DNA from: Vicinamibacteraceae bacterium
GTDB taxonomy: Bacteria > Planctomycetota > Phycisphaerae > Phycisphaerales > UBA5793
Reading direction: 5' to 3'
NCBI GenBank assembly: GCA_011525805.1
Contig: WYBR01000040.1
Span: 112,407-176,406, forward strand
DNA: 64,000 bases
Below, in pieces: positions 49,879-52,800 of this stretch (position 1 is its first letter; each line of letters starts with the position of its first letter). The notes under the pieces were generated by a model, which did no database searches, was not told the DNA's origin, and worked only from the letters and a program-made list of their open reading frames with translations. The translations under genes were made by a program, and so were the position numbers.

Positions 49879-52800
49879 TCACGACCGGGCGCGGGAGCCG
49901 ACCTTCGAGCGCGAGCGACTGCCGGCCGAAGCCGCGCGCGGCCGGGCCGCGGGCTTGACCTTGACTTCCGCCGCCGCGCCACCGAGATGCCTGCGCATCC
50001 ACACGCCCGTGTGGCTTGCGTCGACGCGCATGACCGCCTCCGGCGCGCCGGTCGCGACGATGCGCCCGCCCGCGTCGCCTCCCTCGGGCCCGAGGTCGAT
50101 GATCCAGTCGGCGCACTTCACCACGTCGAGGTTGTGCTCGATCACCACCAGCGTGTTGCCCTGGTCCGCGAGTCGATTGAGCACGGCGAGGAGTTTGCGG
50201 ATGTCGGCGAAGTGCAGCCCCGTCGTCGGCTCATCGAGGATGTAGAGCGTGTGCTGGCTCTGCCCGTGCAGCGTCGAGCCTTTGCCCAGTTCGGTCGCGA
50301 GTTTGATGCGCTGCGCCTCGCCGCCGCTGAGCGTCGTCGAAGGCTGGCCGATCTGGATGTAGTCCAGCCCCACATCGTGCAGGCATTCGAGCATGCGCAG
50401 GATGATCGGGTGCGCCTCGAAGAACTCGACGCCCTCCTCGACGGTCATGGCGAGCACCTCGGCGATGTTCTTTCCCTTGTAGGTGATCTCGAGGGTCTCG
50501 CGGTTGTAGCGCGTGCCGCGGCAGGCCTCGCACTCAACGTAGACGTCGGGCAGGAAGTGCATCTCGATCTTCTTGGTGCCCTGTCCTTGGCAGACCTCGC
50601 AGCGCCCGCCCTTGACGTTGAAACTGAACCGCCCCGGCTGGTAGCCGCGCACCCTCGCTTCTTTCGTCTTCGTGTACAGTTTGCGAATGTCGTCGAAGAA
50701 GCCGGTGTAGGTCGCGGGATTGCTCCGAGGCGTGCGACCGATGGGGGACTGGTCCACGTCGATGATGCGGTCGATGCGGTTGAGGCCGGTGATGCGCTTG
50801 TGCTCGCCGGGTTTCTCGCGGCCGAGACTGAGGTGCCGCCGCGTGGCCTTGAGGAGGATCTCGTTGACGAGCGTGGATTTGCCCGACCCGCTCACCCCCG
50901 TCACGCAGATGATCCCGCCGAGGGGGAAGACCGCGTCGATGCTCTTGAGGTTGTTCGCCGCGGCGCCCTTGACCGTGATCGCCCTGCTCTCCGTCATCGG
51001 CCGGCGCTTCTCTGGCATCTCGATGCGTTCGCGGCCGCTGAGGAACCTGCCGGTGATCGATTCCTTTGAGGCGATGATCTCCTCGACATTGCCCTGCGCC
51101 ACGATGCGCCCGCCGTGCACGCCCGGCCCCGGCCCGAGATCGACGATGTGGTCGGCCGCGCGCATCATGTCTTCATCGTGCTCGACGACGATGACGGTGT
51201 TTCCGATGTCGCTCAGGTGCCGCAGCGTGCCGATGAGGCGCTCGTTGTCGCGCTGGTGCAGGCCGATGGTCGGCTCGTCGAGGACGTAGCACACGCCCAC
51301 CAGTCCGGTGCCGACCTGCGTGGCGAGACGGATGCGCTGCGCCTCGCCGCCCGAGAGCGTGCCGGTGCGGCGGCTGAGGTTGAGGTACCCCAACCCGACG
51401 CTTCGCAGAAAGCCGAGGCGCGCGAGAATCTCCTTGAGAATCGGCCGCGCGATCTCCTGCTGCTCGCCGGTGAGCGAGAGGCCGGCCATGAACTCATCCG
51501 CCTGCTCGACGGTCATCTCGGCCAGCGTCGCAATGTTGACGCGCTGCCGGCCCGGCCCCGTGAGGAAGACGTGCAGCGCCTCGGGACGAAGCCGCCGGCC
51601 GCCGCAAGCCGGGCAAGGTGTCTGGCTGAGGAGCATGCTCAGGCGTTCCTTCACCCGCTCGTTCTGCGTGTTGGCGAAGCGCTCCTTGAGGATCGGGATG
51701 ACGCCGGGGAAGTGGTTCGATGCGCCGCGCCCGCGTTTCTTCTCGCCCGTGCCGTCGAGCAGAATGGATCGATGCTCGCGCGGCAGGGCGTTGAACGGCG
51801 TGTGGAGGTCGATGCCGAACTTCTTGCACGCCCGCCGGATCACCGCCGCGAACCACGAGCGGTAGGCGTGGCCGATGCGCGCAAAGGCGCTGATCGCTCC
51901 CTCGTCGATCGTCAGCGAAGGATCCTCGACGACGAGGTCAAGGTCAAACTCCTGGATCGTGCCGAGGCCGCCGCAGGTGGAGCACGCGCCGAAGGGCGAG
52001 TTGAAACTGAACAGCCGCGGCTCGAGTTCCGGCAGGCTGCACTCCGGATGCGCCGGGCAGGCGAAGTGCTCGCTGAACAACTGGTCCACCCACTGTGCCG
52101 GAGCATCGTCATTCCCGCGCAGGCGGGACTCCACGCTCCCTCCCCCGGCTTTGCGAGGGAGGGTCGGGGTGGGGGCGCCTTCTCCCTCTCCCTCTGGGAG
52201 AGGGTCGGGGTGAGGGCTGCCTTCCGCATCCTGCTGCACCGACACGACCAGCAGTCCCTCGCCCAGCCGCAGGCCCGTCTCGACCGAGTCCGCCATGCGG
52301 CCGCGACCGTCGGCGCGCACGATGACGCGGTCGATCACGGCCTCGATGTTGTGCTGTTCATAGCGGCCGAGGTTGAGGGGATTCTCCCCCGGCTCCTTGA
52401 GCGCCTCGCGCAGGTCGATGATGGCCCCGTTCACGCGGGCGCGGACGAACCCCTGCTGCTGGAGCGATTCGAGCACTTCGCGGTGGTGCCCCTTCTTGCC
52501 GCGCACCAGCGGCGCCAGGAGCATCAGCCTCGTCCCCTCCGGCATGGCCATGATCGCATCGACGATCTGCGTCGCGCTCGACCGCTCGATGACGCGGTCG
52601 CACGCCGGCCCCGCGCCGTCCGAACCGTGCCAGCAGCGCGGCGTGCCGCAGCGGGCAAAGAGCAGCCGCAGGTAGTCGTAGATCTCGGTCGTCGTGGCGA
52701 CGGTGGAGCGCGGGTTGTGCCCGCTGGCACGCTGCTCGATCGCGATCGTCGGGGGCAGGCCCTCGATCGTCTCCACGTTGGGCTTCTGGAGTTGATCGAG

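Follow-up and report, generated by a model that had tools for sequence, protein, structure and literature searches.

The stretch analysed here, which we call the window, comprises 64 kb (positions 1-64,000, the + strand being the forward strand) of contig WYBR01000040.1 from a Phycisphaerae-like member of the Planctomycetota. On its - strand it carries a uvrA gene whose reading frame passes through a short block of GC-rich, hairpin-forming sequence. This block, the insert, consists of three adjoining inverted-repeat units which we term A, B and C, and its origin and its fate as part of the UvrA protein are the subject of this report. The features concerned are the following.

49879-53151, - strand: uvrA open reading frame (ORF); probable coding sequence 49879..53010, from the ORF list and translation
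52105..52218, within uvrA (- strand): the insert, 114 nt or 38 codons, in frame and stop-free
52107..52134, + strand: unit A, CGTCATTCCCGCGCAGGCGGGACTCCAC, an NTS/dRS3-type (Ssn-related, REPIN-type) hairpin
52138..52175, + strand: unit B, a variant intrastrand-triplex motif with the BoxC/PIT/TM-ECO architecture and another stem; an inverted repeat with C-arm (52138-52147), loop (52148-52153), G-arm (52154-52163), spacer and third-strand G-tract (52166-52175)
52184..52216, + strand: unit C, CCCTCTCCC-TCT-GGGAGAGGG-TCG-GGGTGAGGG, a canonical BoxC/PIT/TM-ECO intrastrand-triplex motif

The uvrA gene and its insert

The longest uvrA ORF encodes 1090 residues and opens at an ATG at 53151, where it overlaps an intergenic repeat; homologs and a related contig (see below) indicate that translation probably begins at M48 (53010) instead. 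An exact look-up of the 1090-residue protein gave no record. In the translation the UvrA catalytic motifs, among them two Walker A and two LSGGE motifs, are preserved, and solved UvrA structures are strong matches to the window protein (E = 1e-131). The nearest homologs retrieved by a database protein search come from Phycisphaerae and Planctomycetota and share only 50-58% identity with it, save for a single partial match at 69%. The knuckles of zinc module 1, at residues ~170-185 and ~360-370 of the 1090-residue ORF, are atypical: the first has another sequence in place of CPxC and the second has CPAHPEC in place of CPxCG, the form (A)CPxHPEC being common to most Phycisphaerae homologs. An earlier reading of the window, made from the sequence only, had called uvrA an essential gene, a label that we drop because the gene is normally not essential.

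Across the insertion site the translation reads ...VSVQQDAEG, then 38 inserted residues, then the conserved continuation, identical to the translation given in the sequence-only reading. The end of the insert may lie at 52224, in which case it takes in GCCTTC, a repeated tail. All three inverted repeats that had been described are present on the + strand within 52105-52218, one of them in a better register (see below), and the last two carry the tails GGTCGGGGTG(G/A)GGG at 52162-52175 (unit B) and 52203-52216 (unit C). The same two share the direct repeat GAGGGTCGGGGTG(G/A)GGGC. They also have a common tail of 24-25 nt that includes GC(T)GCCTTC and suggests a local duplication or a common flank.

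Dinucleotide-preserving shuffles of the window provided estimates of what chance would produce. The 21-mer, allowing up to three mismatches, occurs twice in the window against 0.00 expected, and the tail motif twice against 0.08; the CTCTCCC...GGGAGAG hairpin and the published NTS and TM-ECO patterns are each expected 0.00 times. The hairpin of unit A by itself is not significant (0.23 expected, with a match in 19 of 100 shuffles), and it is the match of this unit to 26 of the 28 positions of the NTS motif that is significant.

Four of the six frames of the insert are free of stop codons, the GC-rich units being inherently almost without them, and the frame in use encodes a peptide rich in Pro, Gly, Glu and Arg. 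Given a length of 3 x 38 nt and an open frame in use, the insert will be translated as a Pro/Gly/Glu-rich surface loop of 38 residues, which bears out the earlier proposal that it is tolerated because it has a length divisible by three and lacks stops. The G-rich, triplex-capable strand of the units is the + strand of the window and hence the template strand of uvrA transcription.

The segment is extra with respect to orthologs, as had been proposed. In a protein alignment it is absent from all 60 of the nearest UvrA homologs, in which the site is a variable loop of 3-20 residues, and residues 268 and 269 of Mycobacterium tuberculosis UvrA (MtUvrA) align directly before and after it. A metagenome collection, scanned with a degenerate back-translation of a lineage-specific peptide, yielded one contig, WBZO01026484.1 (here L209), that is syntenic with the window over ~3.4 kb at ~85-91% identity. 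Its uvrA is 93.6% identical to that of the window over 1,321 nt and carries the same 114-nt insert at the same position. The recurrence of the insert in an independent contig argues against misassembly, a concern raised at the outset, and shows that the insertion is older than the split of the two lineages.

Repeat families represented in the insert

The arms of unit C, CCCTCTCCC (52184-52192) and GGGAGAGGG (52196-52204), are 100% complementary around the loop tct, and the unit as a whole fits the published 33-nt pattern CCCTCNCCC-N3-6-GGGNGAGGG-N3-GGGNGAGGG exactly. Repeats of this kind are said to have been described by Bachellier and colleagues in the 1990s and by Hoyne and Maher in 2000. 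From TM-ECO no. 20 of E. coli K-12 unit C differs in a single loop base. In BLAST searches with window positions 52180-52222, 4,539 of the 5,426 complete E. coli genomes had sites that agree with the unit C region at 37/38 bases (97.4%). Such sites occupy a median of 6 places in each genome, and the best matches listed overlie no annotated feature; further matches fell in 336 plasmid or secondary-replicon records, mainly from Enterobacteriaceae, Aeromonas and Azospirillum. In 70 IMG/VR contigs the 21-mer GGGAGAGGGTCGGGGTGAGGG is present without mismatch; upstream of almost every copy lie a complementary C-arm and a variable loop, and the flanks are unrelated.

The TM-ECO pattern was defined by Holder et al. 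2015, BoxC and PIT being earlier names of the element (PMC4666352). Like it, unit C has a 9-nt C-arm, a 3-nt loop, a 9-nt G-arm, a 3-nt spacer and a 9-nt reverse-Hoogsteen G-tract. Holder et al. report it to be always intergenic in E. coli K-12 MG1655 and gave its census for proteobacterial genomes only (PMC4666352); the units described here instead lie inside a gene, where they are in frame and translated, and their host is a Planctomycete (Phycisphaerae-like). Moreover, they stand in tandem and in direct orientation next to an NTS hairpin, unlike the inverted A/B pairs of E. coli.

Unit B is best described not as CTCCCTC-N12-GAGGGAG but as CCCTCCCCCG-gctttg-CGAGGGAGGG, with arms at 52138-52147 and 52154-52163 that are 90% complementary. 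L209 has the ancestral form, CCCTCCCCCG-GCTTTG-CGGGGGAGGG-TC-GGGGTGGGGG, with a perfect 10-bp stem, and the 21-mer of this form occurs in 22 IMG/VR contigs, nearly always with the complementary C-arm. By sequence, unit B is a second triplex-motif subfamily, of the GGGGGAGGG type. The triad scheme (G.G:C, T.A:T, A.A:T) appears by inspection to fit both unit C and unit B of L209, the triplex itself being predicted only. The G-rich halves of the two units, 52155-52175 and 52196-52216 (+ strand), also fit a canonical G-quadruplex pattern (G3-N-G3-N-G4-N-G3+). We have set a G-quadruplex reading of the G-tails (G3N3G3N2G4N3G3) aside, as published circular dichroism and nuclear magnetic resonance data assign a triplex to the full motif (PMC4666352); a competition between hairpin, triplex and G-quadruplex in units B and C is conceivable.

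Unit A centres on the inverted repeat TCCCGC-gcag-GCGGGA at 52113-52128 (stem 52113-52118 / 52123-52128) and agrees with the NTS motif CGTCATTCCCGCGMAVGCGGGAATCYRG at 26 of 28 positions. With two mismatches it exceeds the limit of one set for the motif, and it does not fit the degenerate SRM pattern. The copy in L209 matches NTS at 27 of 28 positions, contains a perfect dRS3 palindrome and fits SRM; unit A was probably an NTS/SRM member ancestrally and has slightly decayed in the window. An exact 19-mer of unit A is found at no fewer than 120 IMG/VR loci (at least 120), and the family consensus among the IMG/VR matches listed is GTCATTCCCGCGCAGGCGGGAATCCAG.

NTS is an oriented hairpin that encompasses dRS3, and in Neisseria it is targeted by SsnA, a single-strand nuclease of the GIY-YIG type; relatives of NTS, termed SRM, are spread over many bacteria, and NTS elements flank ssnA in an arrangement resembling an insertion sequence (PMC11893778). 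The Neisseria REPIN master sequence has the same core as the motif of unit A (bioRxiv 10.1101/2021.07.10.451892). With these elements unit A shares an oriented CGTC leader, a palindrome of the ATTCCC-N8-GGGAAT type and a trailing C. It differs from them in being a single copy inside a gene with no flanking ssnA or RAYT seen, in being short of one stem pair in the window, and in residing in a host outside Pseudomonadota.

Taken by its sequence, the insert is a head-to-tail, BIME-like mosaic of three units from two known families. The earlier proposal that it consists of dispersed repeats is supported by the exact TM-ECO fit, the 26/28 NTS match and the copies in IMG/VR and E. coli. The label attached to it, a 'MITE/REP-like cassette', holds in part. 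The insert resembles REP/BIME elements in its short GC-rich hairpin units and head-to-tail arrangement, and departs from them in that those are by definition extragenic and species-specific, whereas the insert is intragenic and its units are common across phyla. With MITEs (miniature transposable elements with inverted repeats) such as Correia and Nezha it has in common that it is small and non-autonomous, and such elements too can extend or interrupt ORFs. A MITE was rejected since no terminal inverted repeat joins the ends of the insert and there is no consistent target-site duplication: the flanks read GCATC in the window against GGATC and ACATC in the relative, at a 124-nt spacing that is out of frame.

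A quite different origin would be local: slippage, or the growth of low-complexity sequence, would have produced the segment in a GC-rich gene, with a chance or convergent likeness to known families, or else the insert would be a chimera of the assembly. The tail of 24-25 nt with GC(T)GCCTTC common to units B and C, and the lack of other unit copies in the window, speak for local growth. Set against this are the exact fit to the 33-nt TM-ECO pattern, with 37/38 identity to E. coli copies, and the NTS fit of 26-27/28, a degree of likeness expected 0.00 times by chance; the chimera is countered by the independent assembly with the same insert in the same place. On this sequence evidence we consider a local origin or an artefact extremely improbable and essentially excluded.

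Structural position, selection and mechanism

The insert lies ~9-10 residues ahead of the second Cys knuckle of zinc module 1, and the aligned stretch of the crystal constructs of the UvrB-binding domain (3FPN, 4DFC) stops at it. In MtUvrA the UvrB-binding domain spans residues 129-255 and the insertion domain 290-411, and the stem between them bears zinc modules 1 and 2 (PMC3167621). The break in the alignment, together with this domain map, places the insert in the stem between the UvrB-binding and insertion domains. Residues 48-567 were modelled with AlphaFold2 from 40 homologs; the model has a predicted local distance difference test score (pLDDT) of 84-97 for the UvrB-binding domain and contains two confident β-strands, at model residues 253-260 and 306-313. 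Between these two strands most of the insert (blocks 271-300) scores ~35-46, below 50. In the model, accordingly, the insert sits at the tip of a β-hairpin that lies between the UvrB-binding domain and zinc module 1, and it is predicted to be a disordered loop, in agreement with the surface-loop landing envisaged before.

This position raises the question of whether the protein has taken the segment over. A loop that is flexible, acidic and rich in proline, placed where the mobile UvrB-binding domain hinges, would then alter the hand-off between UvrA and UvrB or the range of domain movement. The stem adjoins that domain, for which large movements are described (PMC3167621), the peptide differs from that of the relative by a single conservative residue (E to D), and uvrA is under strong purifying selection, all of which would suit such a role. 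The loop, though, is of low complexity and predicted to be disordered, and the homologs have nothing comparable at a site where loop length is free between 3 and 20 residues. Since the peptide is no more conserved than the DNA, selection at the protein level is not needed as an explanation, and we regard it as very unlikely.

Comparison of the window with L209 separates the insert from its surroundings. In the uvrA flanks 77 of 1,108 nt differ, 64 of them at third codon positions (of 369), which corresponds to a nonsynonymous rate (dN) of 0.016 and a synonymous rate (dS) of 0.279; the resulting dN/dS of 0.058 implies that the insert-bearing uvrA is under strong purifying selection. In the insert only 2 of 114 nt differ, both among its 38 third-position sites (dN 0.012, dS 0.034). 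The contrast in divergence has a Fisher p of 0.016 over all sites and of 0.035 over third positions. Elsewhere in uvrA, ~5% of 114-nt windows are equally conserved, so that the low divergence of the insert is no more than suggestive. Both differences are derived in the window copy relative to the family consensus, and each breaks a stem pair: GGGAAT has become GGGACT in unit A, and CGGGGGAGGG has become CGAGGGAGGG in unit B.

These figures are what would draw attention to a role of the nucleic acid, in which the DNA or RNA sequence, and not the peptide, would be under selection. The insert would then be kept, for instance, as a hairpin or triplex that causes pausing in replication, transcription or translation between domains, or as an Ssn-type single-strand nuclease site modulating recombination at uvrA. 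Beyond the low divergence of the insert at all sites, at third positions and in dS, this reading could appeal to the folds, since the three hairpins form in single-stranded DNA (z = -2.2) as well as in the mRNA strand (-64.9 kcal/mol, z = -2.8), and to the fact that NTS hairpins are real SsnA targets in Neisseria (PMC11893778). It has to contend with the small numbers and the equally conserved windows just mentioned, with the derived and pair-breaking nature of both changes in the window, and with the absence of an ssnA-like gene from the window in a weak regex test. In E. coli, furthermore, TM-ECO/PIT elements acted neither as promoters nor as terminators, and they showed no stable triplex in vivo (PMC4666352). 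We judge such a role unlikely.

The account that we favour, and hold to be probable, is that of a passenger: a mosaic of dispersed hairpin and triplex repeats that was inserted in a permissive loop, inherited, and translated as a disordered loop. The mosaic would have entered uvrA before the lineages of the window and of WBZO01026484.1 parted, landing in what appears to be a β-hairpin turn, within the stem between the UvrB-binding domain and zinc module 1. Most likely the units would have spread by a route directed by hairpins or single strands, such as has been put forward for REP/RAYT and NTS/Ssn elements; in the scheme proposed for REP/REPIN elements, RAYT transposases disseminate them by acting on hairpins of single-stranded DNA (bioRxiv 10.1101/2021.07.10.451892). 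The units may then have accreted side by side, as hairpin repeats tend to do. The position is permissive, given that loop length at the site already varies between 3 and 20 residues among homologs, and UvrA seemingly tolerates the loop, which is presumed to be neutral for its function.

Several observations weigh against the passenger account. Neither the 64-kb window nor the relative contig of 3.6 kb contains a second copy of unit A, B or C, so that multi-copy status in the insert's own genome is putative; with a median of 6 places per E. coli genome, 64 kb is uninformative on copy number. A Pfam scan of 10 predicted neighbour genes gave no transposase or nuclease match, and a six-frame regex of the window, a crude and weak test, found no GIY-YIG (ssnA-like) ORF. 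No empty-site allele from a close relative came to light; the homologs without the insert that lie nearest are just 50-58% identical. Finally, the dS of the insert lies ~8-fold under that of its flanks, which is not predicted for a purely neutral passenger. The neighbours with Pfam matches are mostly housekeeping genes, encoding an RsmA-type methylase, glycosyltransferases, an O-antigen ligase, a γ-glutamyltranspeptidase, UbiA and STAS/anti-sigma proteins. There is no RAYT in the neighbourhood, to which the search was confined, and Rfam gave no family match on the whole window.

The closest behavioural parallel is found in Rickettsia, where Rickettsia palindromic elements (RPEs) reportedly insert in frame in protein genes, as described by Ogata et al. 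in 2000, a study cited in the reviews PMC3184786 and PMC10969869. As with RPEs, a short palindromic repeat lies in frame in a housekeeping gene and is translated in a surface loop while the gene appears functional; the insert is stop-free and absent from orthologs, and the gene that bears it has a dN/dS of 0.058. In contrast to RPEs, single elements said to measure ~100-150 bp, it is a mosaic of three units of ~30-40 nt, from another repeat family and in another phylum. The likeness concerns behaviour alone. What is already known, then, are the BoxC/PIT/TM-ECO and NTS/dRS3/SRM families and in-frame palindromic insertion, classically by RPEs; what is new is that the two families are joined in a single mosaic, that a BoxC-type motif lies within a gene, and the phylum of the host. 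An odd segment of uvrA is tied to two well-described repeat families. No new mechanism is revealed, and the insert is a clear and fairly ordinary case of small repeat DNA turned into a part of a protein.

Translated copies and the range of the families

Neither Holder et al. (PMC4666352) nor the Ssn paper (PMC11893778) discusses intragenic, translated copies. We found the following further cases.

L042:6914-8518, - strand: IMG/VR phage ORF for a terminase large subunit with in-frame BoxC-type motifs
L051:3236-5065, + strand: IMG/VR phage ORF for a prohead protease with an in-frame BoxC-type motif
L232:1500-1580 = NZ_CP076395.1 ~30813-30890: NTS-type hairpin pair in ileS of Sphingopyxis indica pMC4

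In the terminase an inverted pair of triplex motifs is translated as LTPTLSPEGRGG...VGEGRGEG (residues 301-328), between the domains Terminase_6N (79-286) and Terminase_6C (343-497), and in the prohead protease one triplex motif directly follows the Peptidase_S78 domain. The RefSeq ileS of S. indica pMC4 contains an inverted NTS-type hairpin pair translated in frame as ...RHPRESGNPERASADANMDSRFRGNDE..., comparable to SRLRGNDD in the window. Several further in-frame BoxC-type sites occur in the very large ORFs of L037, L053 and L061, which have no Pfam match or LPD3 only, and another plasmid match (H53) lies under a coding sequence for an NAD(P)-dependent oxidoreductase.

Protein searches with the insert peptide returned little of the same kind. 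A word-indexed search with 44 residues gave one word-sharing candidate and none that scored. HMMER with 40 residues against 1.84 billion representatives gave 11 matches, none with the full three-unit mosaic; those inspected mostly resemble spurious ORFs over PHPxPLPxGEG repeat arrays. The mosaic is not a common composite either, in view of the only 3 IMG/VR loci, mutually close in sequence, at which both families occur within 150 nt of each other.

A scan of a genome collection for a putative subfamily tail, GGTCGGGGTGRGGGC-N0-1-GCCTTC, yielded 18 loci. Most of these are matches by chance within GC-rich coding sequence; the true triplex motifs are few and come from metagenome-assembled genomes (MAGs) of Chloroflexota, Dormibacterota and Pseudomonadota. 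None of the loci shows the pair of matches expected of the genome from which the window derives, which is therefore absent from that collection. Canonical BoxC-type units in non-proteobacterial MAGs are those of L199 and L200 (Chloroflexota DATGMD01) and L191 (Dormibacterota), L200 having tandem copies a few bases apart. Secondary replicons of Azospirillum carry both families (30 records BoxC-type, 9 NTS-type), and this genus, which is available in culture, would lend itself to work on the coexistence of the two repeats.

The range of the families extends to Planctomycetota, TM-type units also to MAGs of Chloroflexota and Dormibacterota, and an in-frame coding location is possible. The cases of uvrA, terminase, prohead protease and ileS suggest that such repeats are occasionally inserted into loops and linkers of proteins, as RPEs are in Rickettsia. 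The strings PHPxPLPxGEG, LTPTLSxxxRG and SRLRGND inside conserved proteins are a sign of translated repeat DNA and not of novel domains. A broader and rather doubtful proposition is that BoxC-type and NTS-type repeats, hitherto described from Proteobacteria and as intergenic, are a cross-phylum source of new disordered loops and linkers, with the uvrA mosaic perhaps also under constraint at the nucleotide level. Were that constraint real, it would imply a structural role of DNA or RNA inside a repair gene. The repair pathway of uvrA has been implicated in the processing of triplex DNA.

The window also contains a native dispersed repeat of ~45 nt with the core CGCGCTCCCCTGCGCAAAGCCTCCGGGTCGCGGC, apparently intergenic and present in four copies in both orientations over the 64 kb:

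45566-45627, + strand: native repeat
53139-53200, + strand: native repeat
19700-19750, - strand: native repeat
58398-58448, - strand: native repeat
L209:1336-1395: native repeat in the relative contig

It forms a weak hairpin, with no covariation and no Rfam match. One copy, immediately upstream of uvrA, lies in the divergent intergenic region there and is kept in L209. The native repeat and the loop of unit B have the 9-mer CGCAAAGCC in common, which may be chance.

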